From Burkholderiales bacterium (GTDB lineage: Bacteria > Pseudomonadota > Gammaproteobacteria > Burkholderiales > JBILQJ01), in contig JBILQJ010000003.1 in NCBI GenBank assembly GCA_044373325.1, positions 7,188-71,187 of the forward strand: a DNA stretch of 64,000 nucleotides. The letters run 5' to 3'. Below, in pieces: positions 34,206-64,000 of the stretch. The position numbers and the translations under genes were made by a program. The number at the start of each line of letters is the position of its first letter. The stretch's first letter is position 1. Below the pieces are notes generated by a model that did not search any database, was not told the DNA's origin, and worked only from the letters and a program-made list of their open reading frames with translations.

Positions 34206-34268
34206 CAAAAATACAACCCTTTGATTTAATACGATAGATGACTTCTCTCATTTACTTAGGACTGATTT

Positions 34269-35400: not shown

Positions 35401-36189
35401 ATGGATATTCAAGCCCCTTTTGATTTTAATCGTCGATTTGGTGGCATAGGGCGATTGTACGGAACAGAAGTTTTAAAGGATTTTCGGCAACGCCACATTG
35501 CCGTGGTTGGGGTTGGTGGAGTTGGTTCTTGGGCGGTTGAAGCCTTGGCGCGCAGCGGCATAGGTCAAATTACTTTAATTGATTTTGATCAAGTTGCCGA
35601 ATCGAACACCAACCGACAACTGCCAGCCATAGACCCTTTTTATGGGGAGGCTAAAGTCAGCGTGCTGGCCGAGCGCATTTTACAAATCAATCCCTCTTGT
35701 CAAGTTCATGTCATCGAAGCCTTTGTTGACGAAGAGAATTTAGCGCAACTGATTACCCAAGACTTAGACGGCGTGATTGATGCCATTGATCAAGTCAAAA
35801 TCAAAACGCTGATGGCTGTGCATTGCCTAAAACTCAACATTCCTTTGGTGGTTTCTGGCAGCGCAGGTGGCAAATGTGATCCGACTCAACTGACGCAAGC
35901 CGATTTATCAGCGGTCACACACGATCCCCTTTTGGCCAATATGCGTTACGATTTACGTCGCCGCCACGGTCTGCCTCGCGAAGGCAAAAAAATGCGCATC
36001 GCTTGCATTTATTCGACAGAAGCCATCATTAAACCCATCAAACCCACACAAGATGCTGGGCAAAGCGCCCCCCAAGGACTTTCTTGCAGTGGCTATGGTG
36101 CCAGCATGATGGTCACGGCCAGCTTTGGATTGGCCGCCACAGCTTATTTACTCAACCGCTTATCCCTGTCCAAACCAGCCACTTCTTAA
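35401..36189 (+). CDS. tcdA: tRNA threonylcarbamoyladenosine dehydratase (ThiF/E1-like, TcdA/YgdL)
   Basis: 262 aa. RFGGIGRLYG then the VVGVGGVGSW nucleotide-binding loop. Confidence 0.75.
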   Translation: MDIQAPFDFNRRFGGIGRLYGTEVLKDFRQRHIAVVGVGGVGSWAVEALARSGIGQITLIDFDQVAESNTNRQLPAIDPFYGEAKVSVLAERILQINPSCQVHVIEAFVDEENLAQLITQDLDGVIDAIDQVKIKTLMAVHCLKLNIPLVVSGSAGGKCDPTQLTQADLSAVTHDPLLANMRYDLRRRHGLPREGKKMRIACIYSTEAIIKPIKPTQDAGQSAPQGLSCSGYGASMMVTASFGLAATAYLLNRLSLSKPATS

Positions 36190-36208
36190 AAGGTTTTGTG
36201 CCGCCCTC

Positions 36209-36802
36209 ATGCTTACTTTTCACTCGCCATCGATGGGTGAGGCTTTTTGGTCTACACAAGCGCTTGATTGGACTGCTGAACAAACGCGCCTCATTACCCA
36301 TACACAATCTTTAACGGTTTATTTGCAGCAAACTCAATTGCCCGTGCGCGTACAAGTCTTGTATTCAGGCGCTGGCACAATGACCGCCTCCGAACAGGCC
36401 GCAAGCCAGTGGCCAGATAAGCAAGCCATTTTTATTCGAGAAGTGCTGTTACGGCTCAACGAAATGCCCGTCATTCTGGCGCGTAGCATTTGCCAACTGC
36501 CTCTCGCTCACGCAAATCACACTGACCCCAACCATTTTTGGCTTAACTTACTCAATCGAGGCAATCACCCCTTGGGCTTAAATTTATTTCATCCCCAAGG
36601 CCAAATACAAGCCTGCACCTTGCATTACGCGCAATTTATGCCCCAATTTTACGCCCACGCCGCACAAAGTTTTCTGACACAAAGTCCATTACCTGCCCGT
36701 TGCCGCTTTTTTGAACACCAAAGCAGTCATTTATTGGTGACTGAATTTTTTTTACCTGAACTGTTTCCCTTTTTTCTCAATCAGTCTACGAATTTGCCCT
36801 AA
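36209..36802 (+). CDS. ubiC: Chorismate pyruvate-lyase (4-hydroxybenzoate synthase)
   Basis: By eye, FIREVLLRLNEMPVILARS, HPLGLNLF and LLVTEFFLPE match E. coli UbiC WLREILLCADGEPWLAGRT, TPLGRYLF and LLLTELFLPA. Sits directly upstream of ubiA. Start at ATG 36209; the ORF-track start at 36125 overlaps tcdA. Confidence 0.75.
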   Translation: MLTFHSPSMGEAFWSTQALDWTAEQTRLITHTQSLTVYLQQTQLPVRVQVLYSGAGTMTASEQAASQWPDKQAIFIREVLLRLNEMPVILARSICQLPLAHANHTDPNHFWLNLLNRGNHPLGLNLFHPQGQIQACTLHYAQFMPQFYAHAAQSFLTQSPLPARCRFFEHQSSHLLVTEFFLPELFPFFLNQSTNLP

Positions 36803-36807
36803 TTATT

Positions 36808-37683
36808 ATGTTTAATATGTTTAAAAATTGGAAAAAGCGTGGTTCAGTCTACGCCAAATTAATGCGTTTAGATCGCCCTATCGGCACTTTATTGCTACTG
36901 TGGCCAACCTTATGGGCCTTGGTCTTAGGCGCAAATGGCCTGCCCCCTTGGCGCACTTTACTGATTTTTATGCTGGGTACCTTGCTGATGCGTTCGGCGG
37001 GTTGCGTCATCAATGATTATGCCGACAGACACATCGATGGTCACGTCCAGCGCACCAAAGAACGCCCTTTTGCACAAGGCAGTGTAAAGCCCAACGAAGC
37101 CCTGTATTTGGCGGCCAGTTTGGCTTTGATGGCTTTTTCGTTGACTTTTTATTTGCCCGTTGCTGCGCTGTTTTGGAGCATACCCGCCGTTGTGATTGCC
37201 GCCATTTATCCGTACACCAAGCGATTTTTTCCTTTGCCGCAAGCGGTGTTAGGCGTGGCATTTTCTTTTGGGATGCCCATGGCTTTTGCGGCTTTAGAAC
37301 AGCCCTTAGACGCGCGCTTATGGTTGATTTTTGCGGCCAACTTGTGTTGGGTCATCGCTTACGACACGATTTATGCTTTGGTGGACAAGCCCGACGATTT
37401 AAAGTTAGGCATACGCACTTCGGCCATTACGTTTGGGCAGCACGTCCAATCCGCCATTTTGATGTTTCATGGTTTGTTTTTGGGTTTGATGTTAACGCTG
37501 GGCGTGTTGGGTGCGTTCCGTTGGCCTTATTGGTTGAGCTTATTTTTAGTCGCCACCCTCATCGCCAAACAACTTCAAGACATTAAAAGCGACAATCCTC
37601 AATTGTGTTTTCAGGCTTTTTTACACAACAATCGCATTGGCTGTATTGTCTTTTTAGGCCTAATTGGCCATTATTTACTATAA
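36808..37683 (+). CDS. ubiA: 4-hydroxybenzoate polyprenyltransferase
   Basis: 291 aa. NDYADRHID aspartate-rich motif and a second motif YDTIYALVDKPDD. Confidence 0.9.
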   Translation: MFNMFKNWKKRGSVYAKLMRLDRPIGTLLLLWPTLWALVLGANGLPPWRTLLIFMLGTLLMRSAGCVINDYADRHIDGHVQRTKERPFAQGSVKPNEALYLAASLALMAFSLTFYLPVAALFWSIPAVVIAAIYPYTKRFFPLPQAVLGVAFSFGMPMAFAALEQPLDARLWLIFAANLCWVIAYDTIYALVDKPDDLKLGIRTSAITFGQHVQSAILMFHGLFLGLMLTLGVLGAFRWPYWLSLFLVATLIAKQLQDIKSDNPQLCFQAFLHNNRIGCIVFLGLIGHYLL

Positions 37684-50184: not shown

Positions 50185-51690
50185 ATGACCCATCCAGATT
50201 TAACCGTACCACACACCGATGAAAACCACATTATGGCGGAACGTCGCCAAAAATTGGCGCAATTACGTAGCGAGGGCATCGCTTACCCCAATGATTTTCG
50301 ACGCACCCATTTTGCCGCCGATTTACAAGCGGACTATGGCCAAGTCGAACCCGAAAGCTTAAAAGCGCAAGCTATAGAAGTCGCCATTGTTGGCCGCATG
50401 ATGCTAAAACGCGTAATGGGAAAAGCCAGTTTTGCTACCTTGCAAGACAGCAGTGGCCGTTTGCAAGTGTATATTGCGGGGGGCGCCATCGGCGAAACGC
50501 TTTATAATGGGTTTAAACATTGGGATTTAGGCGATATTGTGGCGGCCACGGGTACTTTGTTTATCACCAAAACGGGCGAATTGTCTGTGCACGCCACGCA
50601 CCTGCGATTGCTGACGAAAAGTGTGCGTCCTTTGCCTGAAAAATTTCATGGCATCGCCGATCAAGAGGTCAAATATCGCCAGCGCTATCTTGATTTAACC
50701 ATGGATAGAACGTCAACCGAACGCTTTATCAAGCGCTCACAAATTGTGCAATCGGTGCGCGACACTTTGGTGGATTTAAAGTATTTAGAAGTTGAAACGC
50801 CCATGATGCACACCATACCGGGTGGCGCATCCGCTCAACCTTTTTTAACGCATCACAATGCGCTGGATATGCCCTTATATTTACGCATTTCGCCCGAGCT
50901 TTACCTCAAACGCTTAATGGTGGGCGGCTTAGAACGGGTGTTTGAAATCAACCGCAGTTTTCGTAATGAAGGCATGAGCACCAGACACAATCCAGAATTT
51001 ACCATGATGGAATGTTACGAAGCTTATGCCGATTACCACGACATGATGAATTTGACCGAACGCATCATGCAAGCCGCCGCACTCAAAGTCTGCGGCAGTT
51101 TGCAAATTGAATACCAAGGCAAAATGGTTGATTTAAGTCATTTTACGCGCATGACCATGAATCAAGCCGTACAAGCCTTTAACCCTGATTATACCGACGC
51201 GCAGCTGAATGATGCCGCTTGGTTAAATGAAGCCATCAAACGCCATGGCGAAAAACCGTTGGGGGCAGACGCGCCTGTGGGCAGTTTGCAATTGGCTTTG
51301 TTTGAAGCCGCCGCTGAAGCCCAAATTTGGCACCCAACTTTTATTGTTGATTACCCTATCGAAGTCTCGCCTTTGGCTCGCGCATCCGACACCAAAGCGG
51401 GCTTGACCGAACGGTTTGAATTATTTTGTACGGGTCGAGAATTGGCCAATGGCTATTCGGAACTCAACGATGCCGACGATCAAGCCCAGCGCTTTTTGTC
51501 GCAAGCCGCTCAAAAAGATGCAGGCGATGACGAAGCCATGTTTTACGATGCCGATTACATCAAAACCTTGGAATACGGCATGCCACCAACGGGCGGATTG
51601 GGCATCGGCATCGATCGTTTGGTGATGCTATTGACCGATGCGGCGTCAATACGCGATGTGATTTTATTCCCGCAAATGCGCGCAGAATAA
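50185..51690 (+). CDS. lysS: Lysyl-tRNA synthetase (class II)
   Basis: 501 aa. OB-fold N-terminal domain, class II motifs FRNEG (motif 2) and [14 protein letters not shown] (motif 3). Confidence 0.9.
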
Positions 51691-51712
51691 AGCAGCAAAA
51701 CCATGCAAAATG

Positions 51713-51762
51713 CTTGCGGCCAACCTTTTATCCAAAAACGGAGGAAAAAGGTTGGCCACAAG
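51713..51762. repeat. Last inverted pair of the repeat in the window (after lysS)
   Basis: CTTGCGGCCAACCTTTT-ATCCAAAAACGGAGG-AAAAAGGTTGGCCACAAG. Confidence 0.9.
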
Positions 51763-51784
51763 CGTTTTTTAAAAATTAGACTAA

Positions 51785-52249
51785 TCAATTATCTTTACTA
51801 CAATGGCCTGATTTGGCCATTTTAAGCCTAGAAATGTGTTTTTTTCCTTGCTCATCCGTCACTAGTTCTAAATCTGCTCCACCTACAAAGGCACCCATTT
51901 TGATGACTTGCCGAACGAAATAGTTTTTACCAGTGTCCATCATTAACTCAAGTGAGTTTGAAGAAAACTCAGACTCGGTCTCAATTTTATGGCGCTTTCC
52001 GCCATCAACTTCTGTATAAAAAAATACCTTATTTGCAGTCTCACCCAAACACTTTCCATCAACCCAAACATCTTTTTTTAACGATTTACCACCAAAACTG
52101 TTGCGATAAACATACAAACCCGCTTTACCTTGACTCGGTTTATTAAAGTCTTTGGCCTCCAGAGACTCTTGTTGTGGAGCCATTTTGACAGAAGCACAGC
52201 CAGAAACAATCAATGTGCTAGCAAAAATAACAACAGAAAATATTTTCAT
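51785..52249 (-). CDS. Small lipoprotein, DUF2846-like
   Basis: Lipobox LIVSGC, a GLYVYR...VWVDGKCLG pattern, and a visibly AT-rich gene. Start at ATG 52249, which is preceded by GGAG. Confidence 0.55.
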   Translation of the reverse strand: MKIFSVVIFASTLIVSGCASVKMAPQQESLEAKDFNKPSQGKAGLYVYRNSFGGKSLKKDVWVDGKCLGETANKVFFYTEVDGGKRHKIETESEFSSNSLELMMDTGKNYFVRQVIKMGAFVGGADLELVTDEQGKKHISRLKMAKSGHCSKDN

Positions 52250-52391
52250 AATTACCACTCCTAGATTTATCTAAATTAAAGATAACATTATAACATAGTA
52301 AAAAATTTAAAATATCATCTGGTCACAAGGATTTTGTTACTCAACGCAACCGTTAAGACGATTTTTGTACTGGCGGGGTGACGCTTACGTT

Positions 52392-54746
52392 TTATGCCGC
52401 CTCAGACGTCATCCAATTAGAAATAAACACAATCGCCAGCCACGTCGCGCTCATGCCAACGGCCAAACTTAAGCCCAAATTATGCAAAGCGGGCGTGCTG
52501 GACAGCGTGAGCGTGCCCAGCGACAAAATCGTACTCCATGCGCTCAAACACACTGTCATCCATAAGTTTTGTTGCTCTTTTGCATGTTCAACCAAGAAAA
52601 TGCCGTAATCAACGCCCATGCCCAAAATGAGCAGCAGCGGCAAAACAGTAAACAATTGCAGCGGAATGTGTAGTAGCCCAAGCAGCGCCACAGTCAATAC
52701 GCTTGCCAGTGCAGGCGCAGCCAGTACCCACAAAGATTTACGTCGATAGCGGGGCCACAGACATGCCGCAACCACCAAATACGCCAGCGCGAGCATCCAC
52801 AGCATTTTGTTACGATACAACTGCATGATTTGATTGTAATTCTCAACTTGGTCAATCCACAGCACGGTTGGCTGATTTTTTGCGAGTGAGGCAAAGGCCT
52901 GTTTGTTTTTCTCTGTCACCTCGCCCGTAAGAGAGACCACGCTTGCCCAGCGCCCGTCGGCTTGTTGACCCAGCCATTGGTTTTTGAGTGTACCTGAGAA
53001 TGGTTGCGCCAACCATGAATCCATACTGATTTGGCTGGATGTGACGGCGGGAATGTCCATGCCAATTTTGGGCGCAATCGCAGCGACTTTGTCTGTAACC
53101 AATGTTAGGTTTGCTTGCTGGCGCAAGATGGACGGCACCCATTCTGAAATGGCGCGGTAGTGGAATGTTTGACCTTCGGCGTTGAGCGCATCCAGTTGGT
53201 CGCGCAAAGCCTCTTCTGACTCAAGCAATGCCTGCTCGTTGTTGGCAGTGACTAAAAAATACTGCGTATTTGACTCACCCAATAATTTACCCGCTTTGAC
53301 TTGCTCTTGCATCAGCCAATTGGGTGAGTTTTGAAAAGCGCGTAAGTCGTCTTTAAAACTCGTGCGGCTCAAGCCAAAAATCACCAATATGAGCAGCAGC
53401 ACCGTGCTGATTTTGTGGTACATGATAGGCAGTTTGGCTTGTTTTAGACGCAGCCACCATTTTGGAAACATGCGGTTAAATGCCGACTCGGGCGGTAACT
53501 TTTGGAACACATACGGAAACAAAAGCATGACGGTCAACCATGAACCAATCAGCCCAACCACGGAAAAAAACGCCAGCTGGCGCAACCCGGGAAATGGCGG
53601 AATCGCCAAGCACGCGTAAGTAAATACAGTAGTGAGTAGTGCAAAAAACAGACCTATCCACAAATGGCGGCGCACGTTCCACACAGAGCTGGTGACTTCT
53701 TTTTGGCGAAATGCCAAGAAATGCAAGCCGTAATCTTGTGCCACGCCCGTCAAGCTCACACCAAACACCAACGTGATTAAATGCACCTGCCCAAAAGCCC
53801 AATAGGTCAATACAAACGCCATGCCCAAACCTATAGCCAAACTCAGCGCAATCATAAACACGGCTTTTAGGCTGCGAAATGCCAACGCGATGAGCAGCAC
53901 AATTCCAATCATTGAAAGCGTACCAAACATGCTGACCTCATGCTTTGCTTGTTCTGTTGCGGCGGAGGCGTGCAGGGGAATACCTGCGGCAATAATTTGC
54001 ACGCTCGAGTCAATATGGACTGCGGCAGCTTTTGCATTGTTATAGGTTTGAATCAGTGGGGTTTTATCATGTAAATCAAAGCCAGATTGCACGGTTTGAT
54101 ACACCAATGCGTCGTAGATTTGGCCATTGCTACTCACTTGCAATTGGCCATTGTCATTTGGCGTGAGTTTGGTTTTGCCCAGTTGCGCGAGCAGCCATGT
54201 TTGCAAGTTGCCCAGTGGATCGTCCGATACGGATAAGCCGATTGAAACAGGGCGTATGGCGTTGCTGATGATTTGGCTTTGCCATTGCTCGTTCGTTTGT
54301 GAGGTGATTTTGTTGCGCTGTTCAAAGGTTAACATGAGCGCTTGATGCGGCTGATAATACGTAAGAAAGTCTTGTAAGCCCGACTGGTTCAAAGCGGCCA
54401 CGGGCTGAATTTGTGTATTTTGGCGCAACTGTTCAGTGACTGCGGCTTTGGCTTGCTCGCGCGTGGCATGATTTTTGGCGCTGACCAAAAAAACAATTTT
54501 GTCCGACACAGATTTTGATTGTCGTTCGTTGGCGATTTGCACCAAAGCCCAGTCGTGTGGCGCGATTTTTGCAAATTCGCGCGGTAAAAGCTGCAGCGGG
54601 TCGCGGTTGATACCGTTAAGCAACGCGCCACGCGCCAGGATGGCGTATACGAGCAAGCCTAAAACCAGCGTTAAGAACAAGCCGCTGGCAATTAAGCTGA
54701 TTTTGGATGCGCGTTTGTGTGTGGTTGGAGTCATTGTGGTTGCCAA
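52392..54746 (-). CDS. MMPL/RND-superfamily exporter (APE-cluster ApeM-like)
   Basis: 784 aa with two blocks of about 6 TM helices separated by large soluble loops. Last gene of the minus-strand cluster. Confidence 0.75.
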   Translation of the reverse strand: MATTMTPTTHKRASKISLIASGLFLTLVLGLLVYAILARGALLNGINRDPLQLLPREFAKIAPHDWALVQIANERQSKSVSDKIVFLVSAKNHATREQAKAAVTEQLRQNTQIQPVAALNQSGLQDFLTYYQPHQALMLTFEQRNKITSQTNEQWQSQIISNAIRPVSIGLSVSDDPLGNLQTWLLAQLGKTKLTPNDNGQLQVSSNGQIYDALVYQTVQSGFDLHDKTPLIQTYNNAKAAAVHIDSSVQIIAAGIPLHASAATEQAKHEVSMFGTLSMIGIVLLIALAFRSLKAVFMIALSLAIGLGMAFVLTYWAFGQVHLITLVFGVSLTGVAQDYGLHFLAFRQKEVTSSVWNVRRHLWIGLFFALLTTVFTYACLAIPPFPGLRQLAFFSVVGLIGSWLTVMLLFPYVFQKLPPESAFNRMFPKWWLRLKQAKLPIMYHKISTVLLLILVIFGLSRTSFKDDLRAFQNSPNWLMQEQVKAGKLLGESNTQYFLVTANNEQALLESEEALRDQLDALNAEGQTFHYRAISEWVPSILRQQANLTLVTDKVAAIAPKIGMDIPAVTSSQISMDSWLAQPFSGTLKNQWLGQQADGRWASVVSLTGEVTEKNKQAFASLAKNQPTVLWIDQVENYNQIMQLYRNKMLWMLALAYLVVAACLWPRYRRKSLWVLAAPALASVLTVALLGLLHIPLQLFTVLPLLLILGMGVDYGIFLVEHAKEQQNLWMTVCLSAWSTILSLGTLTLSSTPALHNLGLSLAVGMSATWLAIVFISNWMTSEAA

Positions 54747-54875
54747 GCGTTTAAATTATTGGAGCTCATGGCGCCAAATCAAGGGCGGGCATGAATGCCC
54801 GCCCTACATGTTTGAACTTGTTTGTACCGAGTACTTTACTGGAAAAGATACTGAAGATGACGTTGAAAATAATGT

Positions 54876-55493
54876 TTAAAACGACACGCTCGCAGGGCTA
54901 ATGGCTTGGGTTTGGCTAAACGTAATCACGCTTTGATCACCGTTGGCCTCGCTGATGCGCACGGACTGAACATAACGCGCGCCGCTTACTTGGATTTGCA
55001 TAATGACTTGCTTCATATTCGGGCTATTTGGAATCAAATTCAGATTCCATGCGCCTTTGCTTTGCGCGCTGCCTGTAATATTAAAATACTGTTCCAGTAC
55101 GCCAAAGTTACCCGTCAAAACGCTTGAAAAAATGGTGTTGATGGTTTTCGTACTCGGACCATTGTCAATATTGGTGTTGGTGCCGCCGCGATTTTCAACC
55201 ATGCCGTTAGGCGTGATTTTGAGCGTGGACGCGCTGGGGCTTTCAGTAATCCACAGCATGCCTTTGTTGTTCACTGCAACCAATTTACCCGTTGAAACCA
55301 TGCTGGTGCGAAAGCCGCGAATCTGTTTGACCTGTCTAAACTGCGCTTGCAAGCCTTCTGTGCGGTTCAGACTGCTCGATACGGTTTGTAATAATTGTTG
55401 CGTGCTTTGGGCGTAACTGGGCGCGGCCGCGCACAAGGCCAGTACTGCGATGGACGTCAATAATTTACGGTACGTTTTAAATGTAATACTCAT
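54876..55493 (-). CDS. LolA-like outer-membrane lipoprotein carrier protein (ApeL-like)
   Basis: Signal peptide MSITFKTYRKLLTSIAVLALCAAAPSYA. Size of about 205 aa and beta-rich composition as in LolA-fold proteins. Start moved to ATG 55493. Confidence 0.65.
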   Translation of the reverse strand: MSITFKTYRKLLTSIAVLALCAAAPSYAQSTQQLLQTVSSSLNRTEGLQAQFRQVKQIRGFRTSMVSTGKLVAVNNKGMLWITESPSASTLKITPNGMVENRGGTNTNIDNGPSTKTINTIFSSVLTGNFGVLEQYFNITGSAQSKGAWNLNLIPNSPNMKQVIMQIQVSGARYVQSVRISEANGDQSVITFSQTQAISPASVSF

Positions 55494-55512
55494 GACGGAT
55501 AATTTTCTTTGG

Positions 55513-55968
55513 TTAAATTGTAATGCCTTGATTTTGAATGCACGCATTAATTTTTTGCAGCAGCACGTCTGGGGATTGATAACACATTTCAAAATTACAA
55601 ATTGCCACCGCAACTTGCGTGGTGTACGCCCGATGCAGCACGCGCATAGTTTGAGCGTCTTTGATTTCGTAGTTGATTTTTAAACGATTTTCCCACTCGG
55701 TAATCGCACAGGCCACAATCACGGATTGCGCGTACGCAATCGGGCGAATGTATTTAAGGCGCATGTCCACAACAGGCCACGCGTAGCCCGAGGCTTGCAT
55801 TTGTGGGTAATCATAATCAATGGTTTGCAACAGTGCGCACCGTGCAACTTCTAAATATTTGACGTAATTGCCATGCCAAACAATATTCATCGGGTCAAGG
55901 TCGTGAAACTGTGGCTGAATCACAGTTTCTGTGTAGGCAGGAAATTGAGATAAGTTCTTAATCTTCAT
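55513..55968 (-). CDS. Hotdog-fold thioesterase (4HBT type, ApeK-like)
   Basis: About 151 aa. HDLDPMNIVWHGNYVKYLEVAR matches the 4HBT catalytic-Asp N-terminal motif. The start ATG at 55968 overlaps the upstream stop (ATGA). Confidence 0.75.
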   Translation of the reverse strand: MKIKNLSQFPAYTETVIQPQFHDLDPMNIVWHGNYVKYLEVARCALLQTIDYDYPQMQASGYAWPVVDMRLKYIRPIAYAQSVIVACAITEWENRLKINYEIKDAQTMRVLHRAYTTQVAVAICNFEMCYQSPDVLLQKINACIQNQGITI

Positions 55969-56891
55969 TTGTACGCCCGCCAAAAATCGAAAAAATTAAA
56001 CCACTCCAAAGGGTATTTGTGGCAGGCCTGCGCCAAGCGGTGCGCGTATTGTTGCGCATAACCTTGCAATGCGGCGGCGCGATTTTGGCGCGGCAGCTCT
56101 ATTTTGTCGGCCAATACCTCGTATTCCACCGTGTAACCAAGTGCATTTTTGCAGCAAAACATCAACAAAATGGGACAATTAAACATAAATGCCAACAAAT
56201 ATCCTCCTGTTGGAAAATACGCGGTTTGTCCCAAAAACTCACACGGCACCGCGTGTTTGCCGTCATCCGACACTGGCACCCTATCGCCAGCCACCGCAAT
56301 AATTTCGCCATTTGCCACTTTTTCGGACAATTTAATAGATAGCGCTGGATCAAACTGCGAGGTTTCAATTAAATTGAAGGTGGTGTTTGGATTGAGTTTT
56401 TTTAAAATCGTCATAAATGATTGGCTATTTTTGGTGTGCGTGAGGACGTTTAGCGGGCGATTGCTTAATTTGGCAATGGTGCGCGCCACTTCTACTGTGC
56501 CAAGATGTGATGTGAGTATTAAAAAGCCTTGTTTTTTGTCGAGCAATTGCGTGGCCAACTCACGGTTGTAAATAGCAGCCACAGGCGCTTTAAAGTCAGG
56601 TGTATTGGCCAATAGTTTATCCAATAAACCATCTGCAAAATGCACGAAATGGCGAAAAGAAGTGCGCAGATTTGGCTTTACAACGCTGCCACTGATCTGC
56701 ATGCGCTGCAAATACGTGAGCGAAGCGCGCCGAGCACTGGCGCTGGTTATAAAATAAAAACCCACCACGGGGTACATAAACAACTTAAATGGCCATGCGC
56801 CCAGTAAGCGGTACACATGCAACAGCCATAAAATGCCGCTGGCAAATGTTCTTTCTCCGATCGTGGCCCAATGGCGAGTTGGCTGGCGCAT
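55965..56891 (-). CDS. Lipid A-type (LpxL/HtrB family) acyltransferase
   Basis: LTSHLGTVEV (H-x4-E/D acyltransferase motif) with the surrounding layout of lauroyl/myristoyl acyltransferases. ATG at 56891 preferred; GTG at 56924 is possible. Confidence 0.7.
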   Translation of the reverse strand: MRQPTRHWATIGERTFASGILWLLHVYRLLGAWPFKLFMYPVVGFYFITSASARRASLTYLQRMQISGSVVKPNLRTSFRHFVHFADGLLDKLLANTPDFKAPVAAIYNRELATQLLDKKQGFLILTSHLGTVEVARTIAKLSNRPLNVLTHTKNSQSFMTILKKLNPNTTFNLIETSQFDPALSIKLSEKVANGEIIAVAGDRVPVSDDGKHAVPCEFLGQTAYFPTGGYLLAFMFNCPILLMFCCKNALGYTVEYEVLADKIELPRQNRAAALQGYAQQYAHRLAQACHKYPLEWFNFFDFWRAYK

Positions 56892-56921
56892 AACGTTCCA
56901 TTTCTTTAAGTGAGACCTTTG

Positions 56922-56951
56922 CACAACAAATTAAAAATCTACTTTGTTGTG
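56922..56951. other. Perfect 9-bp hairpin at the 5' edge of the acyltransferase gene
   Basis: CACAACAAA, a 12-nt loop, then TTTGTTGTG. There is no T-run on either side. Confidence 0.4.
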
Positions 56952-57139
56952 AATCGACAAAACTTATTGGGGAAGCCCGAACAAGTTTTAGGTAAAAAAC
57001 ATGAAAAAATCCCAATTGCCCGTCATTTTGCAGCTTCCAAAAATAGAGGCTGTTGAATTGGCTGGTTATGCAAAGCCCTCTAAGTGAGATTTCGCGGCGA
57101 GCGCGAGCGGTTGGCATTATAACCTACTGAAGGCTTGAT

Positions 57140-57615
57140 TTACAGTTGGTTGCGTCTGCGCACTTGTTTTGTCTTGTTGATGCCTAAGGCAAGGAAGCTG
57201 TTGTATACCCATTCGGAGCATTGTTTAGACAGCATTTCATTGGTTTTAAGATCCATCTTGAGTCAAGGTAGCCAGAAATCGTGGCTTTTTTGCCGCTTTA
57301 AGCCCCCACAATCACGTCTTTTAACGCATCGTTTGCGTGTTGCCCGTCAAATCAACTTTGTCGCTGGCAAAGTAAAATTTCACCATGCCATCTTCAATCA
57401 CAGCGTTCGCTTGTGCGTCAGGAATTGCGGCCATTTTATTAGTGTATGCCGCTTCAGTATTTGTGGTGCTCGTTGCGTGTGCTTTGGTGTCCGTTGTGCT
57501 TGAACCACTGTTCATGCCCCCACTAAATACAAAAACCAACAATCGTGCTGATGATGAAACCAACAATAATACCCAAGGCAAAGCGTTGTTCGTCGTCTTG
57601 ATGTTATGCTGCCAT
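57140..57615 (-). pseudogene. Decayed gene for a small membrane-anchored OmpA-C-like protein
   Basis: GGAG-N8-ATG (57615) is followed by TAA at codon 4. Frame 0 then encodes a clean TM helix (QRFALGIIVGFIISTIVGF). The reading continues in frame 1 after a T5 run (...EDGMVKFYFASDKVDLTGN). It returns to frame 0 (ANDALKDVIVGA-stop-SGKKATISGYLDS). It ends in frame 2 (DLKTNEMLSKQCSEWVYNSFLALGINKTK). Only a 102-aa fragment is open. Confidence 0.5.
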
Positions 57616-57710
57616 GCTATTTTCTCCAATAGAGGTTAAAAACTAAGCAAACTATACGTGAGTTTGAGGCAAAAAAAACTCATATTAAACATGACTAAAC
57701 GCAGCATGAT

Positions 57711-58472
57711 TTAGGCATCAAATTTTGGTTTGTCAGAAAAAAAACGACGCAATAACTTGGGTAGGCGCGGCAACATGCAAAAAAACAACCGCGTGTGCAT
57801 GAGACTGATGTACACATTGTCACGCACCGATAAAAAATGCGACACGCCATCGGCGGGGTAATGAACTTGCGTGGGCACATTGATTATTGACACCCCCGCC
57901 CAGTCTCCGCGCACAAGCAGTTCGGTTTCAAAACTCATTCGCGGGTACATGTTGTAACGCTCGATTATCGGCAACAACGGCGCGAGCGGGTACACGCGAA
58001 AGCCACACATCGAGTCTTTAATCCGCAACGAAACCGTGTTAATCCACACCCAAATGTGGGTCAAATAACGCGCGTATAAACGGTGTTTGGGCACGGTTGC
58101 ATCATAAATAGGGCAACCGCAAATAATGGTTGCAGGATGCGCCTGAGCCAAACGGATAAAATGCGCAATATCGCCCAGCGCGTGCTGCCCATCTGCATCG
58201 ACTTGCAACACATGTGTAAAACCAAGCGATGTGGCTGTGCGAAAACCTGTTTGAATACCAGCGCCTTTGCCCTGATTGTGTGCATGCGCCACCAGTTGCA
58301 CGCGGGCTTGCATCAAACTTTGTAACACCTCAGAACACGCCGCATCACTGCCGTCATTGATTAAAATAATCGGTAAATCTGTGGTGCTTAAAATACACGC
58401 TACCGTCTGCCCAATGGTTGCGCCGTGGTTAAACACAGGAATAATAATCGCAGGGTTAAATGAAATCGTCAT
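57711..58472 (-). CDS. Family 2 glycosyltransferase (ApeJ-like)
   Basis: IIIPVFNHG, LINDGSD and QVDADGQH (DxD) motifs. The start ATG at 58472 overlaps the upstream stop (ATGA). Confidence 0.8.
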   Translation of the reverse strand: MTISFNPAIIIPVFNHGATIGQTVACILSTTDLPIILINDGSDAACSEVLQSLMQARVQLVAHAHNQGKGAGIQTGFRTATSLGFTHVLQVDADGQHALGDIAHFIRLAQAHPATIICGCPIYDATVPKHRLYARYLTHIWVWINTVSLRIKDSMCGFRVYPLAPLLPIIERYNMYPRMSFETELLVRGDWAGVSIINVPTQVHYPADGVSHFLSVRDNVYISLMHTRLFFCMLPRLPKLLRRFFSDKPKFDA

Positions 58473-60160
58473 GCATCGCTCCAAATCAACGTGCCAGAAG
58501 CGTGTGTACCTAAATCAGAGGTGTAGCTAAAATCCACTTTTTGATTGTTTAATGTGAGCTGTAATCTGACTTGCGCGGCAGGCGAAATAATCTTTTTGAA
58601 CTTCAGTTTTTTAAGTTCAATCGTAAGTGGTGTATCGGGCAGTTGCGCGCCAAAAAAAAGCTGGCTGTAGCGTTGCGCCCACTCAATTTGCACCACACCT
58701 GGTAAAATCGCTTGCTCCGCAAAATGTCCTTGAAAATATTGCAAATCAACGGGAATGACAAGGTCTAATTGTGCGCATGCCTCGTCAATTATTTGGCTGA
58801 CAATCTGCGGCAAGGTACAGATTTCAGGAGCATTTAATAACTGCAATAACGTTTTTTGTTCCACCTTGCCTTGGCTGTTTAGCGGCATCTGAGCCACAAA
58901 ACGCCAGCGTTTGGGAATGGCAATGCGCTCGATGGTATTTTTGAGCGACAGTTTGAATTCATCAATCAATGCACGCCGCCCTATGCTTGCCAAACGTGTT
59001 GCGCCAGCCGCATTTAAACACAACACAGCGCCCAGCGTGGTGCGTGCAAACTCAAGCACAGCAATCTGCGCATCGTCAATCAATTCATGGTTTTGCAGCA
59101 AGACTTCAACCTGTGTGAGCGAAATGCGCTTTTCTTCAATTTTGACCAAACGGTCTGTGCGCCCGCGTAACGCAAACTTGCCACACGAATCAATGCACGC
59201 CAAATCCGAGGTAACAAACATCGGTTCATCGACATCTAAGTAGTCACTGCGCACGCACAGTTGTTGCACCTCATCAACTAAAACCTGCACTGATGGCAAC
59301 GGCGCAAACAGCGCATCAGCTTGTCTATACGCCACCGCACCTGTTTCGGTACTGCCATAAATTTCAATCGGCGTACAATCCCACAATGCAGCAATCTGCG
59401 CACTATCCGCTGTTTTCAAAACCCCACCTGCAGAAAAGACAACCTGCGGGCGTGGCAAATCTGACCAATCAGATTCATCACTTGCGCGGCTTAAAAACGC
59501 AGGGCTGCTAATCAATGTGTACGGCGCATGCGGCAACGCAAGCAGATTTTCTGGGTAGTTGAGCAAGCGGTTAGAAATGGCGCATCGTCCAACGAGTGGT
59601 AGCAACAATCGAAAAATAAAACCATAAAAATGCTGGTGCGAGACGCTCGCATATACGGGATGCGTGGCGAGTTGCGCGCCAAACTGTTGTTGCAAAACCC
59701 GCACTTCTGTTAATAATTGCCGCATGGTTTTAGCAATCGGGCACGGTTTGCCCGTTGAACCAGATGTAAAGAAAAACGTGCGCACCGTCGGGGCAATATA
59801 GTACGCCGTCAACGTGGGCACGCACAGTTGAATGTCCGCCGTAGACAATTGACTCAGCGCAAAATCGCCCGCAAACGCCACGTCGTATTCGTGTAATGAC
59901 GCAACGGTTGTGGGTAACGCATCACTGGGCAAATAAACATGTTTGCCCGCTTGCCAGGCACCCAATAATGCCACCAAAAATACGCCCGTATCCAAGCAAT
60001 ACAACGCCCAAGTCGGCTCAGGGCGCGCGGCAAACGCCACGCGCCACGCCTCGATGGACAGGCGCAATTCATCCCACGTCACATCGCGCTCGGGGTTGCT
60101 CAGCGCAACGCGGGTGTCGCTTTGGTTTAAAAGATGATTGAATGATTCAAGAGTGTGCAT
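58469..60160 (-). CDS. Adenylate-forming (AMP-ligase) enzyme fused to a C-terminal FabA/FabZ-like hotdog dehydratase (ApeH plus ApeI-like)
   Basis: Adenylation cores FFTSGSTGKPCPIAKT, YGSTETG and GRTDRLVKIEEKRISL. The last ~130 aa carry YFQGHFAEQAILPGVVQIEW, typical of hotdog dehydratases. Start at ATG 60160. Confidence 0.8.
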   Translation of the reverse strand: MHTLESFNHLLNQSDTRVALSNPERDVTWDELRLSIEAWRVAFAARPEPTWALYCLDTGVFLVALLGAWQAGKHVYLPSDALPTTVASLHEYDVAFAGDFALSQLSTADIQLCVPTLTAYYIAPTVRTFFFTSGSTGKPCPIAKTMRQLLTEVRVLQQQFGAQLATHPVYASVSHQHFYGFIFRLLLPLVGRCAISNRLLNYPENLLALPHAPYTLISSPAFLSRASDESDWSDLPRPQVVFSAGGVLKTADSAQIAALWDCTPIEIYGSTETGAVAYRQADALFAPLPSVQVLVDEVQQLCVRSDYLDVDEPMFVTSDLACIDSCGKFALRGRTDRLVKIEEKRISLTQVEVLLQNHELIDDAQIAVLEFARTTLGAVLCLNAAGATRLASIGRRALIDEFKLSLKNTIERIAIPKRWRFVAQMPLNSQGKVEQKTLLQLLNAPEICTLPQIVSQIIDEACAQLDLVIPVDLQYFQGHFAEQAILPGVVQIEWAQRYSQLFFGAQLPDTPLTIELKKLKFKKIISPAAQVRLQLTLNNQKVDFSYTSDLGTHASGTLIWSDA

Positions 60161-60707
60161 GAGTACGACGACGGTATTGGCGGTAAAGCCATTCAACCGC
60201 AAACAAGGCGGCAGTTAATAAATAAGCAATCAAGCCGTTGTACAACGCCCAAATTTTCGCGTCGCCGTACAACGTCGTAGCAATTGCCAGTGCGCCATTG
60301 ACGATAAAAAAGCCGCACCACAAAATAGTTACTTTGCGGGTATATGCAACTGCGTGTGGTGGTAAATTAGGTTCGGTCAGGCGCGCCAGCCGTTCAATGG
60401 CAGTTTGCGGCGTAGCCAAACTGCGGGCAAAAAATACCAAAAAAATCAAATTTACAATCGCGGGATACCACAGTAATAATGCGTCGTTGTTGAAAATGTA
60501 GGTCACCAACACCAACAGCGCGCCGCCCGCCAACCACCATCGCCCAGCCGGCGTTTGAAAACCCAGTAAATAGGCGCGAATAAAAATCACGCCAAACAAT
60601 ACCAGACTCATTTGCATGGGCGAATAATATTGCCGCCCAAAATACAGGGCAAACGGATATGTCGCCGTGATAATCGCAAAGATGACTTTGAGCAATAACT
60701 TCACCAT
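60147..60707 (-). CDS. Integral membrane protein (COG4648-type, ApeG-like)
   Basis: 186 aa with about 5 hydrophobic helices. Sits between the ACPs and the adenylating enzyme, as in APE-type clusters. Confidence 0.6.
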   Translation of the reverse strand: MVKLLLKVIFAIITATYPFALYFGRQYYSPMQMSLVLFGVIFIRAYLLGFQTPAGRWWLAGGALLVLVTYIFNNDALLLWYPAIVNLIFLVFFARSLATPQTAIERLARLTEPNLPPHAVAYTRKVTILWCGFFIVNGALAIATTLYGDAKIWALYNGLIAYLLTAALFAVEWLYRQYRRRTHAHS

Positions 60708-60947
60708 TTATTTGGCGGACTCAAGCGCGGTAATCACATCGCCAATGGTGCGCACGGATTTAAACATTTCGGGCTCAACTTTTTTGCCTGTGATTTTGCG
60801 CATTTTGATGATTAAATCAACCGCATCAATGCTGTCAATGTCAAGATCTTCATACAAGCGCGCTTCAAGCGTGATTTTGTCGGCAGGAATATCAAATAAC
60901 TCTTGCAAAGTTTTGGAAATAGTAGGAAATAAATCTTGGTTGTTCAT
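60708..60947 (-). CDS. Acyl carrier protein 2
   Basis: 79 aa from the internal ATG at 60947 (MNNQDLFPTISK...). Phosphopantetheine-attachment motif DLDIDSIDAVDL. The longer ORF-track version overlaps ACP 1. Confidence 0.8.
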   Translation of the reverse strand: MNNQDLFPTISKTLQELFDIPADKITLEARLYEDLDIDSIDAVDLIIKMRKITGKKVEPEMFKSVRTIGDVITALESAK

Positions 60948-60963
60948 AGGAGTCTTTTCGGGT

Positions 60964-61224
60964 TTAAATCGTGCGTGTGTCATGAACCATTTGCGCCAGC
61001 GTGCTGATGCTGGCGAAGTGTTTTTGGGTGTCTTCAGATTTGGCGGAGATTTGCACACCGTATTTTTTTTGCAGTGCAACGCCCAGTTCGAGCGCATCAA
61101 TCGAGTCCAAGCCCAAGCCTTCGATAAACAAAGGTGCTTGCGTGTCAATCTCGGCGGGCGCGATATCCTCAAGCATGAGGGTGTCAATAATCAGTTGTTT
61201 GAGTTCTAATTCGAGTTCTGACAT
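60964..61224 (-). CDS. Acyl carrier protein 1
   Basis: 86 aa. Attachment motif GLGLDSIDALEL. Confidence 0.85.
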   Translation of the reverse strand: MSELELELKQLIIDTLMLEDIAPAEIDTQAPLFIEGLGLDSIDALELGVALQKKYGVQISAKSEDTQKHFASISTLAQMVHDTRTI

Positions 61225-62003
61225 GGTTGATTTTCTCTAAAATAATGTGTTAATTGCTTGGTTAATAAACGGGCAGACAGCCCTTCGGTGGGTGATAGCG
61301 CGCTCGCAATAAAAAAATCATTTTGCACATCAAATGTAAAGTGCATTTTTTTAGGGGGCATCTTGTACCATTTGTGCGACTTTGATAAGCTCGAAGGTGT
61401 GCATGAAATAAAAATCGGAGTTGGGTTGATATTGCCACGCACCGCGATGTTTGACGCGCCGCGCTTAAGGGTGACAGGTTGCCCCACAATGGTGCGTGTG
61501 CCTTCGGGAAACACAATCAAATTACTGCCATTTTGAATCCGCTCAATACACTGTTTGACCAAGCCGTCCGCATCATCAGAGCGGTTTGGAATATAACGCG
61601 CCGTGCGGGTTGCACCAAACATAAACGGGTTATTAAACAAACTTGCTTTGACAATGCAATCGGCCTGATTGATAAACGCGACCAAAAAAACCACATCAAG
61701 TAACGTCGGGTGATTGGGAATAATCAACAAGCCATTGCGCTGATTTATTTTGTCAAAGCCCGACACATCGTAAGTGAGGATACCAAAAAACCGCATAAAG
61801 CCAATAAAAATACGGAACGTGCGCTGTATGAGGCTGCGCGCTAGTTTTTGGCGACGCGCTAAGTTTGGGATGATAAGGAAACAAGGAAACACCAGCAAAC
61901 CCAATATCAAGCCGCCCATGCCAAACAGCGCAAAGCTCAATGCCGTAAAAGCAAATCGCCAATGGTAATTGAAACGAGTTAAGATAAATGCGACCATTGC
62001 CAC
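61206..62003 (-). CDS. Lysophospholipid/1-acyl-glycerol-3-phosphate-type acyltransferase (LPLAT, ApeD-like)
   Basis: 265 aa. N-terminal TM helices, the NHPTLLD (H-x4-D) motif and the FPEGTR motif. Confidence 0.8.
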   Translation of the reverse strand: MAMVAFILTRFNYHWRFAFTALSFALFGMGGLILGLLVFPCFLIIPNLARRQKLARSLIQRTFRIFIGFMRFFGILTYDVSGFDKINQRNGLLIIPNHPTLLDVVFLVAFINQADCIVKASLFNNPFMFGATRTARYIPNRSDDADGLVKQCIERIQNGSNLIVFPEGTRTIVGQPVTLKRGASNIAVRGNINPTPIFISCTPSSLSKSHKWYKMPPKKMHFTFDVQNDFFIASALSPTEGLSARLLTKQLTHYFRENQPCQNSN

Positions 62004-62686
62004 TCCACGCCGCCCACTACATAATTCAATGCAGATTGTTGATTCAGTACAAATGCCAAAAACGCCAAATCGTTGGACAAGGGTTCATTTGTATCGGTTT
62101 GATGCGCTGTTTGCCAATTAAGCCCGTATTGATTGCCGCGCGTGATTTTAAGTGCAAACGCATACGGTGCATGGCGGGGCTGATTGAGCGCGTGATACAT
62201 CTCGGGCATCATGTCGTCATACACCACCAGCACCACTTGCTCATATTCAACCAAATGGTTTAACGCCTCGATCATCGCCGCGCCAATGCGGTTTTGCCCC
62301 GCCGCCAATGAGGTAATTGGCTGTGTATTGTTTTGTAAAATACTCACGCCTCCGGCCACCGCATTGTGTACAGACAACGCAAAATTGCTCGATGACAGTG
62401 GCTCATGCATTGCCAATTGTTGAAGTAATTTTACCGTGCGATCAAGGTCTCCATGACGCGCACAAAAAATTTGCGGCAAATGTGCACTGTTCTCAATTGC
62501 CTGCGTCACCACATACGCCATGCGGCTTAAGCGATTCATACGGCGTCGTTGCATGGCAGGAATTTCGGGAACATCAGGCGTGCCATCCACATTGGGTAAA
62601 TAGGGTGACTTTGCCCACGCCAGCCAAGCGGCGGGTGTCGTTAAACCAGGTGCCCAAGCGGCGGTTTGTGCAATCGAAAAATTCAT
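61979..62686 (-). CDS. Ketosynthase-like chain-length-factor protein lacking an obvious catalytic Cys (ApeC-like)
   Basis: About 235 aa from ATG 62686 (MNFSIAQTAAWAPGL...). Thiolase-N-like layout with LSSSNFALSVHNAVAG where KS enzymes carry the active-site Cys. Confidence 0.6.
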   Translation of the reverse strand: MNFSIAQTAAWAPGLTTPAAWLAWAKSPYLPNVDGTPDVPEIPAMQRRRMNRLSRMAYVVTQAIENSAHLPQIFCARHGDLDRTVKLLQQLAMHEPLSSSNFALSVHNAVAGGVSILQNNTQPITSLAAGQNRIGAAMIEALNHLVEYEQVVLVVYDDMMPEMYHALNQPRHAPYAFALKITRGNQYGLNWQTAHQTDTNEPLSNDLAFLAFVLNQQSALNYVVGGVEWQWSHLS

Positions 62687-62706
62687 GAGTTTATCCAAAA
62701 TAAGTC

Positions 62707-63354
62707 TTATGCACCATACTTCGCGACGGCGCATATGTGTTGCGCCGTGGTTAAATGCGTGATGCAAATGCCATCCGCCGTGCGCCACTGTGTGTTGTTT
62801 ATTTCAATCAATGATTCAGTGCGCAATGTTGCACCCGTTAGGCCTGTGCCGCGCAGTTTGCCCACAGCTTCTTTTGCGCACCACAGCTGATAAAACGCGG
62901 CTAATGGCTGTACTTGTGCGTGCCACCAATTCAATTCAGCCTTCGTGGCAATATACGTCACCAAATCAGCCAAATTGTTTAAACACGCACGCGGGCGAAG
63001 CTCTTCAATGTCGACACCCAACTCACCCGCGTGGTTCAAGCCAGCCAAAACCATGGTGCTGCTGTGGCTAATGCTCACGCCAGCCGCACATAGTTCTCCG
63101 TGCAAAAACGCTTTCGGTGCACCTGTTGGACTGGGCAAAATACACCAGTCTAAAAAAGAACCGCCCATGTCTTGCATGAGCAGGTTTTTAAGCACCCAGC
63201 GACCCGCGATAAAATTGTGTTGTTGCTTGATGTTGGTGCGACAGCTCAATAAATCACGCTCAGACGCAGTCAAAAAATTCACGCCATGCGCGGCATTGAC
63301 CACGTCATTGATGCTCAAAATGGGCGTAAATAGTGCAGGCATGTTTAACCCCAA
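62707..63354 (-). CDS. Sfp-type 4'-phosphopantetheinyl transferase
   Basis: 215 aa. ISHSSTMVLAG, GVDIEELR and WCAKEAVGK motifs. An alternative ATG at 63342 is possible. Confidence 0.7.
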   Translation of the reverse strand: MGLNMPALFTPILSINDVVNAAHGVNFLTASERDLLSCRTNIKQQHNFIAGRWVLKNLLMQDMGGSFLDWCILPSPTGAPKAFLHGELCAAGVSISHSSTMVLAGLNHAGELGVDIEELRPRACLNNLADLVTYIATKAELNWWHAQVQPLAAFYQLWCAKEAVGKLRGTGLTGATLRTESLIEINNTQWRTADGICITHLTTAQHICAVAKYGA

Positions 63355-64000
63355 CGTTTAAAAATCAGCGAGGTATTGATGCCACCAAACGCGAAGTTAT
63401 TGCTCATCATGTATTCAATGTTCGCGTTACGCATGCCTTGTTGCAAAAATCCCAGCGCAGGCAAACGTTTGTCAATATCGGTTAAATTGATAGTAGGTGC
63501 AAACCAACCCTCGCGCATCATCAAAATTGAAATCATTGCCTCGAGGGAGCCGCACGCGCCCAGCGTATGTCCCATATAGCTTTTAAGCGAGCTGATTGGT
63601 ACGTCACGCTCAAACACCGACCACGTCGCTTGTGATTCGGCAATATCGCCTTGTTCTGTCGCAGTACCGTGCGCGTTGACGTAGCCAATTTGAGCCGCAC
63701 CAATCTGCGCATCTTTGAGCGACAAATGTAACGCTTGTGCCATGGTTTCGGTTTGTGGGTGCGTGACGTGTTTGCCATCGCTATTTGTACCAAAACCAAC
63801 CAGTTCAGCATATATGTTTGCGCCACGCGCGATTGCGTGTTCGTACTCTTCTAAAATCAACGTGCACGCGCCTTCGCCCAAGACCAAGCCGTCACGCTTG
63901 CTGTCAAACGGGCGCGGCGATAAATGCGGAAATTTATTTTGGGTGCTGGTGGCAAATAAGGTGTCAAAAATCGCCGCTTGCGTCACGTCCAGTTCTTCTG
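63345..64000 (-). CDS. Beta-ketoacyl-ACP synthase (FabF/FabB-like), C-terminal part; the gene continues beyond the window
   Basis: NAHGTATEQGDIAE, KSYMGHTLGACGSLE and SNNFAFGGINTSLIF motifs. The reading frame is still open at nt 64000. Confidence 0.85.
   Translation of the reverse strand, partial: EELDVTQAAIFDTLFATSTQNKFPHLSPRPFDSKRDGLVLGEGACTLILEEYEHAIARGANIYAELVGFGTNSDGKHVTHPQTETMAQALHLSLKDAQIGAAQIGYVNAHGTATEQGDIAESQATWSVFERDVPISSLKSYMGHTLGACGSLEAMISILMMREGWFAPTINLTDIDKRLPALGFLQQGMRNANIEYMMSNNFAFGGINTSLIFKRWG

Follow-up and report, generated by a model that had tools for sequence, protein, structure and literature searches.

Nucleotides 52392-64000 of a 64,000-nucleotide stretch of contig JBILQJ010000003.1 (positions 7,188 to 71,187 of the forward strand; assembly GCA_044373325.1), which comes from a Burkholderiales bacterium and is called the window throughout, carry most of an aryl-polyene (APE) gene cluster. 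We are confident that this is a complete and functional cluster for the biosynthesis and export of an APE lipid, of the type known from Escherichia coli and Xenorhabdus, and that it probably entered this genome horizontally, with a Hydromonas-like member of the Burkholderiales as the donor.

The region contains 13 intact co-oriented genes and one pseudogene on the minus strand, and most of the neighbors overlap or abut (Table 1). The thirteen genes had been listed in an initial annotation made from the letters and open reading frames (ORFs), and all of them are confirmed at their positions by the ORF list and by Pfam and NCBIfam domains. Rfam and tRNA scans gave nothing within the cluster, the sole match being a tRNA-Asn at 47024. 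The cluster is cut by the window edge, as was assumed initially: the ketosynthase (KS) frame is open at nt 64000, and near-identical contigs continue it. These were found by an exact-sequence look-up of the cluster's 4'-phosphopantetheinyl transferase (PPTase) gene, and include six metagenome contigs (L001-L006) which match the window over 1.8-11.3 kb with 99.3-100% identity. L002, L003 and L005 reach up to 9.3 kb past nt 64000, and about 4.9 kb of this is still part of the cluster. Upstream of the truncated KS gene the extension encodes ApeQ, ApeP, ApeO and ApeN and, at the head of the cluster, a flavin-dependent halogenase, after which comes the unrelated panD. The ApeQ ketoreductase (L005:8047-8772) reaches 372.5 bits with TIGR01831 (FabG2), for which the cutoff is 338.85. 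The ApeP-like dehydratase matches PF22817 (1.5e-20), the lipoprotein ApeN matches DUF3261 (3.2e-31), and ApeO is a second full-size ketosynthase (6qsp_A, 3.6e-86). The ketoreductase, second dehydratase, KS partner and DUF3261 protein that the initial annotation had missed and had supposed to lie past the edge are indeed found there, while the methyltransferase expected along with them is not: no such gene occurs within the cluster in L001-L006 or in the related Hydromonas locus L007. The full unit is approximately 16.6 kb long and has 18 intact genes in the order Hal-ApeN-O-P-Q-R-PPTase-ApeC-D-E-F-G-HI-J(GT), OmpA-like pseudogene, J(AT)-K-L-M, where Hal is the halogenase and GT and AT are the glycosyltransferase and acyltransferase halves of ApeJ. 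The window holds the 3' two-thirds of it.

All cluster proteins were compared by BLASTP with the ape cluster of E. coli CFT073 (c1186-c1204; ApeA-ApeR). One-to-one specific counterparts were found for ApeC, D, E, F, G, H, I, J, K, L, M, N, O, P, Q and R, with identities of 25-59%. The full-length ApeR, taken from L005, is 58% identical to CFT073 ApeR, and its best matches in the PDB are AbApeR (7f27_A, 7.7e-153) and 4ewg_A (4.8e-152), with FabF at 3e-73 or weaker (512 bits to ApeR versus at most 250 bits to FabF). Among the structures matched, 7F27 is ApeR, 4EWG is a Paraburkholderia homologue of ApeR, and both 6QSP and 7F28 are ApeO-ApeC (PMC8358021). The gene at the window edge, first described as a FabF-like KS, does encode a ketosynthase, but specifically the ApeR orthologue, while the partner of the chain-length factor is ApeO, situated outside the window. 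ApeO is 42% identical to its CFT073 counterpart and ApeC 31% over its full length (6qsp_B, 4.7e-23; 7f28_A, 9.6e-16). The corresponding values are 39% for ApeD (1e-50), 48% over 123 aa for ApeG (1.8e-36), 47% for ApeK (2.4e-44), 25% for ApeL (1.3e-17), 26% over 747 aa for ApeM (2.3e-52) and 59% for ApeQ. The two acyl carrier proteins (ACPs), ApeE (54%) and ApeF (52%), each have their own namesake as best match. In the fused protein, residues 46-432 are 33% identical over 398 aa to ApeH (5e-47) and residues 464-551 are 32% identical to ApeI; the C-terminal domain is also matched by 3esi and by 6qsr_A, a 119-aa hotdog protein which we take to be ApeI of X. doucetiae. The GT2 protein corresponds to residues 1-242 of CFT073 ApeJ (52%, 4e-90) and the LpxL-like acyltransferase to residues 243-550 (37%, 8.6e-61), so the latter belongs to the domain family named initially without being an extra enzyme. 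The assignment to the APE type therefore stands gene by gene, on both the CFT073 comparison and the matches to solved Ape proteins.

Membership in the APE family was judged by the core set of Grammbitter et al., namely apeO/R, apeE/F, apeC, apeI/P, apeQ and apeM. The ApeO:ApeC pair, ApeR, two ACPs, two hotdog dehydratases, ApeQ and ApeH are all present, and by CFT073 matches the sets for lipid attachment (ApeD, ApeJ, ApeK) and export (ApeG, ApeL, ApeM, ApeN) are complete as well. Only ApeA and ApeB had no BLASTP match among the cluster proteins. The ApeA lipoprotein, for which there is no Pfam family, and the ApeB methyltransferase are accessory and do not define the family. A DUF2846 lipoprotein gene directly downstream of ApeM was considered as an ApeA analogue and rejected: its product has no similarity to ApeA and it lies outside the segment shared with Hydromonas, and it is not counted in the cluster.

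The catalytic motifs are all kept. The Cys-His-His triads of ApeO and ApeR are intact (in ApeR the His motifs NAHGTAT and GHTLGACG lie in the window and the Cys motif SSACTSG beyond its edge), as are the ACP serines, within a DSID motif in both ApeE and ApeF, and the hotdog His motif GHF...LPGV of the ApeI domain. In the alignment the ApeC-like protein has no active-site Cys. The halogenase has the motifs GAGPSG (FAD) and WFWLIP and a Lys which a manual residue count aligned with Lys76 of CndH. Its closest PDB relative is 3nix (2e-105), annotated only as "flavoprotein/dehydrogenase" and presumably a Cytophaga protein, followed by CndH, ChlB4, CmlS and PltA. In relation to the copy in a Hydromonas metagenome-assembled genome (MAG), dS is about 0.15; dN/dS lies between 0.06 and 0.37 in 17 genes and reaches 0.44 in the PPTase gene, this last value coming from an ungapped 636-nt alignment. 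Purifying selection on all of these genes, with only an OmpA-like insert decayed, argues for a functional cluster.

The cluster has the same internal orders, C-D-E-F-G-H-I-J-K-L-M and N-O-P-Q-R, as the clusters of E. coli CFT073 and of Xenorhabdus doucetiae, the latter of which makes APE lipids (APELs), and we predict that the lipid is attached and exported in the same way. In comparison with E. coli CFT073, however, the order is circularly permuted, with N-R ahead of C-M; ApeH and ApeI are fused, ApeJ is divided into two genes, ApeA and ApeB are lacking, and there are three additions, the flavin halogenase at the head, the PPTase between ApeR and ApeC, and the OmpA-like pseudogene between the ApeJ halves. 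The initial annotation had allowed for a rearranged variant, but this permutation is typical of the relatives and not a one-off. All 18 genes recur in unchanged order in the Hydromonas sp. MAG JAFEII01 (L007), where nucleotide identity is approximately 95%; this locus differs in that its OmpA-like gene is intact and in that the cluster is located between gcvP and rimI-tsaB-ispF-ispD, whereas here it is located between panD and lysS. In Hydromonas duriensis (L011) the order Hal-N-O-P-Q-R-x-PPT-C-D-E-F-G-HI-GT is followed by an inverted AT-K-L-M block, and Formosimonas (L013) has the AT-K-L block inverted in the same way, in a locus that starts at ApeG, upstream of which a halogenase would lie. 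Collimonas pratensis (L012) keeps the E. coli order, with an aromatic ammonia-lyase added and the halogenase between M and N. The junction between GT and AT is thus a recurrent breakpoint among the relatives. The H-I fusion and the split ApeJ are found in all four of these loci, and the halogenase in those of the Hydromonas MAG, H. duriensis and Collimonas. A PPTase is present at the same position in the Hydromonas MAG (85% amino acid identity) and in H. duriensis (27%). The fusion is a common feature, as the two-domain ApeH-I architecture is shared by all of the best 120 database matches, which come from Burkholderiales, Neisseriales, Pseudomonas, Methylobacter and others. Since these features recur in clusters of Burkholderiales, the cluster is, by its gene content, a further member of the known APE family.

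Several lines of evidence bear on its origin. The segment shared with the Hydromonas MAG (94.5-95.6% nucleotide identity) begins in the promoter region of the halogenase gene, ends exactly with the ApeM stop codon and is the only one, while IspD, the sole housekeeping gene present in both the window and L007, is only 43% identical at the protein level. The best named relatives of LysS from the window are Neisseriales/Chromobacteriaceae (about 70%), with no Hydromonas among the best 120 matches, while GcvP of L007 is 71-75% identical to that of Burkholderiaceae. The tetranucleotide correlation of the cluster is 0.87 with the rest of the window, compared with 0.96-0.98 for control pieces of equal size, and 0.96 with the L007 flanks. 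The core GGCCAACC of a repeat that is abundant in the host DNA is represented by 0 copies in the 17.2 kb of the cluster, where about 14 would be expected (Poisson P ~6e-7). A sister contig (L014), with 95.9% identity across holB-lysS, parts from the window immediately behind the lysS terminator hairpin and has a different gene there, which indicates that the site is variable. Taken together, these results suggest horizontal acquisition from a Hydromonas-like donor. No integrase, transposase, other mobility gene or direct repeat was seen at either border of the cluster. In L014 the gene after lysS (L014:4774-5529) encodes 251 aa and has no recorded Pfam match; in the window its place is taken by the APE cluster and the DUF2846 lipoprotein gene mentioned above (51785-52258, minus strand, lipobox VSGC), which falls within the segment that differs from L014.

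The repeat deserves a description of its own. A 16-mer, TTGYGGCCAACCTTTT, is very dense in the genome from which the window comes, with the consensus TTG(C/T)GGCCAACCTTTT, and a 17-mer pattern of it gave 36 matches at no more than 3 mismatches against 0.74 expected. There are 43 copies of the core in 51.8 kb (window positions 1-51763, about 0.8 per kb) and six in the 4.3-kb panD flank (L005:1-4315). The repeat is also present in L014; neither the APE cluster nor the Hydromonas locus L007 contains it. The copies often form inverted pairs that make terminator-like hairpins after genes (e.g. 1254/1289, 5331/5364, 13612/13638, 22468/22500, 22813/22855, 28725/28759, 35311/35347, 37711/37743 and 51713/51746), and 18 core copies are situated inside ORFs. 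By their density and in-gene copies they resemble a DNA uptake sequence, such as the DUS of Neisseria or the USS of Pasteurellaceae, more than a repetitive extragenic palindromic (REP) element.

Table 1. Features of the APE cluster within the window, and the ubiC-ubiA pair outside it.
Feature	Position	Strand	Evidence
ApeR-type ketosynthase (FabB/FabF-like), C-terminal 218 of 408 codons	63345..64000	-	PF02801 7.7e-30; open frame at window edge
Sfp/AcpT-type 4'-phosphopantetheinyl transferase	62707..63342	-	PF01648 (ACPS) 5.2e-16
ApeC, chain-length-factor-like half-size KS without active-site Cys	61979..62686	-	PF13723 (Ketoacyl-synt_2) 9.7e-60
ApeD, lysophospholipid/glycerol-3-phosphate-type acyltransferase (LPLAT)	61206..61997	-	PF01553 5e-17
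ApeE, acyl carrier protein	60964..61224	-	PF00550; NF006617 92.7 bits (cutoff 70)
ApeF, acyl carrier protein	60708..60947	-	NF003757 110.8 bits (cutoff 65)
ApeG (COG4648-type), polytopic integral membrane protein	60147..60707	-	Weak IspA-like match only in Pfam; CFT073 ApeG match
ApeH (aryl acid adenylating / acyl-ACP synthetase) fused to ApeI (hotdog dehydratase)	58469..60160	-	PF00501; PF22818 ApeI-like 4.5e-10
ApeJ N-terminal half, GT2 glycosyltransferase	57711..58472	-	PF00535 1.2e-18
Pseudogene, remnant of a small OmpA-family (peptidoglycan-binding) membrane protein	~57172..57615	-	Alignment with intact L007 orthologue
Conserved non-coding leader with AGGTTATAAT box, upstream of the acyltransferase gene	56892..57171	-	~95% conserved with L007
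ApeJ C-terminal half, LpxL/HtrB-family acyltransferase	55965..56891	-	PF03279 1.4e-7
ApeK, hotdog (4HBT) thioesterase	55513..55968	-	PF13279 1.5e-10
ApeL, LolA-like periplasmic carrier	54876..55547	-	PF03548 2.5e-7; signal-peptide-like N-terminus
ApeM, MMPL/RND-family exporter, last gene of the cluster	52392..54734	-	PF03176; HpnN-like 4.4e-26
ubiC (chorismate lyase) and ubiA, outside the cluster	36125..37683	+	PF04345 3.2e-9 (37.1 bits, cutoff 23.6); PF01040 1.6e-63

The gap of about 0.8 kb between the GT2 and acyltransferase genes has no credible ORF. The pseudogene that the initial annotation placed there is real, a decayed OmpA-like gene between the ApeJ halves. Its orthologue in the Hydromonas MAG is intact (L007:12546-13085, 179 aa, PF00691 5.4e-12), while the copy in the window is broken by a TAA at codon 4, by frameshifts and by two deletions, one of 9 bp and one of about 240 bp at the 3' end. 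Three independent metagenome contigs (L001, L002 and L006) show the same lesions. The conserved 280-bp leader that follows, ahead of the AT gene, has a box similar to AGGTTTATAAT, which is found upstream of the halogenase gene. Since the AT-led block is inverted in H. duriensis and Formosimonas, AT-K-L-M must be transcribed there from a promoter of its own, and this together with the conservation makes the leader a probable internal promoter. In L007 two copies of a hairpin, GGGGCTTGAYTCAYCAAGCCC, are found after the intact OmpA-like gene and after ApeM (L007:13203-13223 and 18044-18064). The hairpin does not occur in the window, where the place of the first L007 copy falls in the stretch deleted from the pseudogene, and this absence ruled it out as a shared end of a mobile element.

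The roles of the enzymes in the APE pathway are known from work on Xenorhabdus and E. coli (PMC8253772; bioRxiv 10.1101/2020.12.19.423268), and we drew the mechanism by homology with the characterized enzymes of Xenorhabdus, E. coli and Acinetobacter. The cluster's own PPTase would convert both ACPs to their holo forms, which would make the system self-sufficient. The ApeH domain would adenylate an aryl acid and load it onto ApeE. The ApeO:ApeC heterodimer and ApeR would then extend it with malonyl units, with reduction by ApeQ and dehydration by ApeI and ApeP in each round giving a conjugated polyene. The phenol ring may be chlorinated or brominated by the flavin-dependent halogenase in place of the methylation that ApeB carries out in E. 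coli. ApeD is expected to acylate a lysophospholipid, the GT half of ApeJ to add a hexosamine and the LpxL-like AT half to transfer the APE acyl group afterwards, with ApeK assisting release, so that ApeD, both ApeJ halves and ApeK together would attach the polyene to a glycophospholipid anchor; in the Xenorhabdus APEL the anchor is GalNAc-phosphoglycerol. ApeG, ApeM, ApeL and ApeN would move the lipid to the outer membrane.

4-Hydroxybenzoate is the usual APE starter. The window has a ubiC-ubiA tandem at a distance of about 15 kb. Among ORFs of at least 140 aa, neither the 64-kb window nor the 9.3-kb extension yielded a XanB2/FkbO-type chorismatase, DarA or DarB, and no tyrosine ammonia-lyase or other aromatic ammonia-lyase was found in the cluster, its Hydromonas relatives or the larger ORFs of the window. 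The presence of UbiC and UbiA and the lack of these other genes make 4-hydroxybenzoate from chromosomal UbiC the most likely starter. As the halogenase is the sole tailoring enzyme and takes the place of ApeB, a chloro- or bromo-hydroxyphenyl polyene is predicted, and the product would be a halogenated, unmethylated APE lipid. The whole picture, in which a self-contained 16.6-kb module with its own PPTase and promoters, coming from a Hydromonas-like donor, directs the synthesis of an unmethylated APE glycophospholipid bearing chlorine or bromine in a distant betaproteobacterium whose own DNA is tagged by a very dense uptake-sequence-like 16-mer, is offered tentatively, and we would put it at somewhat less than an even chance. 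To our knowledge, a halogenated unmethylated APE glycophospholipid is a class that has never been structurally described for E. coli-type ape clusters.

The halogenase could also be read in favor of a pathway like those for xanthomonadin (pig, Xanthomonas) and arcuflavin (arc, Azoarcus), in which 3-hydroxybenzoate from a XanB2 chorismatase would give a brominated aryl polyene, possibly as a dialkylresorcinol (DAR) ester, and no glycophospholipid. Both of these clusters share with ours the type II KS and unusual chain-length factor that make an aryl polyene, and the halogenase, glycosyltransferase, acyltransferases, LolA-like protein and exporter are common to them too. Azoarcus and Variovorax are betaproteobacteria, as is the host, and arc also lists a peptidoglycan-binding protein, which recalls the OmpA-like pseudogene. 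The gene-for-gene match, in a comparison made with E. coli Ape proteins, is to the E. coli type, with one-to-one counterparts of ApeC-R that include two ACPs, ApeG and both halves of ApeJ. With UbiC present and the chorismatase and DAR genes not found among ORFs of at least 140 aa in the window and extension, we regard such a pathway as unlikely. Still more improbable is a flexirubin-like route from 4-coumarate by way of tyrosine ammonia-lyase. It could be suggested by the ligase domain, whose best NCBIfam match is a 4-coumarate-CoA ligase, by the LolA-like ApeL (best NCBIfam match flexirubin LolA2, 6.6e-21) and ketoreductase ApeQ (FlxB), both of which match flexirubin models below the cutoff, by 3nix as best structure match of the halogenase, if this is indeed from Cytophaga, and by the ammonia-lyase in the cluster of Collimonas. 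Against it, neither an ammonia-lyase nor DarAB was found in the cluster or among the larger ORFs of the window, and every protein has a clear counterpart at 25-59% identity in a comparison set that consisted of E. coli Ape proteins and included no flexirubin proteins.

A different objection is that the cluster could be silent or decaying, disused after its acquisition and heading for loss. The fixed pseudogene in its middle, the foreign composition and a close sister lineage that apparently lacks a cluster at the same site would fit this, and the ape cluster of X. doucetiae was reported to be silent under laboratory conditions. On the other hand, the window and the six independent metagenome contigs carry all 18 Ape-type genes intact, the low dN/dS values and preserved motifs speak for selection, and what has decayed is an accessory insert that the E. 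coli cluster lacks, so we find decay quite unlikely. That these are ordinary genes of fatty-acid synthesis or lipid A remodelling, merely resembling an APE cluster, is already refuted for all practical purposes. The FabF-like KS, FabG, FabZ-like, LpxL-like, LPLAT and ACP proteins do belong to housekeeping superfamilies, but the profile searches, named initially as the way to expose an unrelated pathway, pointed to none and matched the APE-specific PF13723, ApeI-like, ApeP-like and DUF3261 families instead. The bit scores of ApeR and the complete synteny with CFT073 lead to the same conclusion.

Some observations weigh against a complete and functional APE-lipid cluster of foreign origin as we describe it. 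There is a pseudogene inside the cluster, and the PPTase, with its 85% amino acid identity and dN/dS of 0.44, is faster-evolving than the other genes. The transfer is argued from one shared housekeeping gene and, for composition, from 4.8 kb of donor flank, and the copies of the host repeat are mostly intergenic (terminators), while a compact cluster has few intergenic gaps. A promoter and terminator scan of 51500-64000 gave counts no different from shuffled sequence, and no operon structure was gained from it. The 4-coumarate-CoA ligase model matches the ApeH domain with 82 bits against a cutoff of 335, and the ammonia-lyase of the Collimonas relative lies in its cluster. Some halogenase-bearing relatives make non-halogenated pigments; for arcuflavin no halogen is mentioned in the available part of the source, although it lists a halogenase in arc. 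Finally, all functional claims for the cluster draw on homology.

The remainder of the window has the appearance of ordinary chromosome. It includes mdh, ggt, deoC, a nucleoside transporter gene, thiL, pgpA, sbcB, holA, lptE, zwf, ispD, mrp, aceE, aceF, carA, lolB, a xerC/D-like gene, tRNA-Asn, holB, hda and lysS, as well as a surE-pcm-nlpD(LysM/M23)-rpoS-like sigma factor gene string at 31817-35276 (+). The release factor 2 gene prfB (40792-41870, minus strand) has a programmed +1 frameshift site, CTTTGA at 41813-41818, in the context of a Shine-Dalgarno-like GGGGG followed by TAT CTT TGA C, with a 28-letter ORF0, and prfA (RF1) lies directly downstream (39610-40698). Genes for a PagP lipid A palmitoyltransferase (28905-29510, minus strand), an AcrB-type RND pump (16309-19443, plus strand) and a second thioesterase, of the 4HBT_2 family (44024-44473, plus strand), are also present; they are not adjacent to the cluster, and genes like these are not part of ape clusters. 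Three minus-strand ORFs have no Pfam family at E<=1e-5: 11155-13578 (807 aa), 30802-31743 (313 aa) and 38960-39613 (217 aa), the last situated between prfA and the gene for an HlyD-type membrane-fusion protein.

Aryl-polyene pigment-lipid clusters form a very widespread family, and one further member is routine annotation. Products of this family guard against oxidative stress and influence biofilm formation (PMC8253772). Knowing of the permuted gene order, the fused ApeH-I and the divided ApeJ should make it easier to read ape clusters of the Burkholderiales type correctly, and the cluster is a candidate source of a halogenated APE lipid. What is new is the apparent horizontal acquisition of the 16.6-kb cluster. 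It would be a well-delimited case in which an entire ape cluster has passed from one betaproteobacterium to a distant relative, and the repeat of the host makes the import easy to see.

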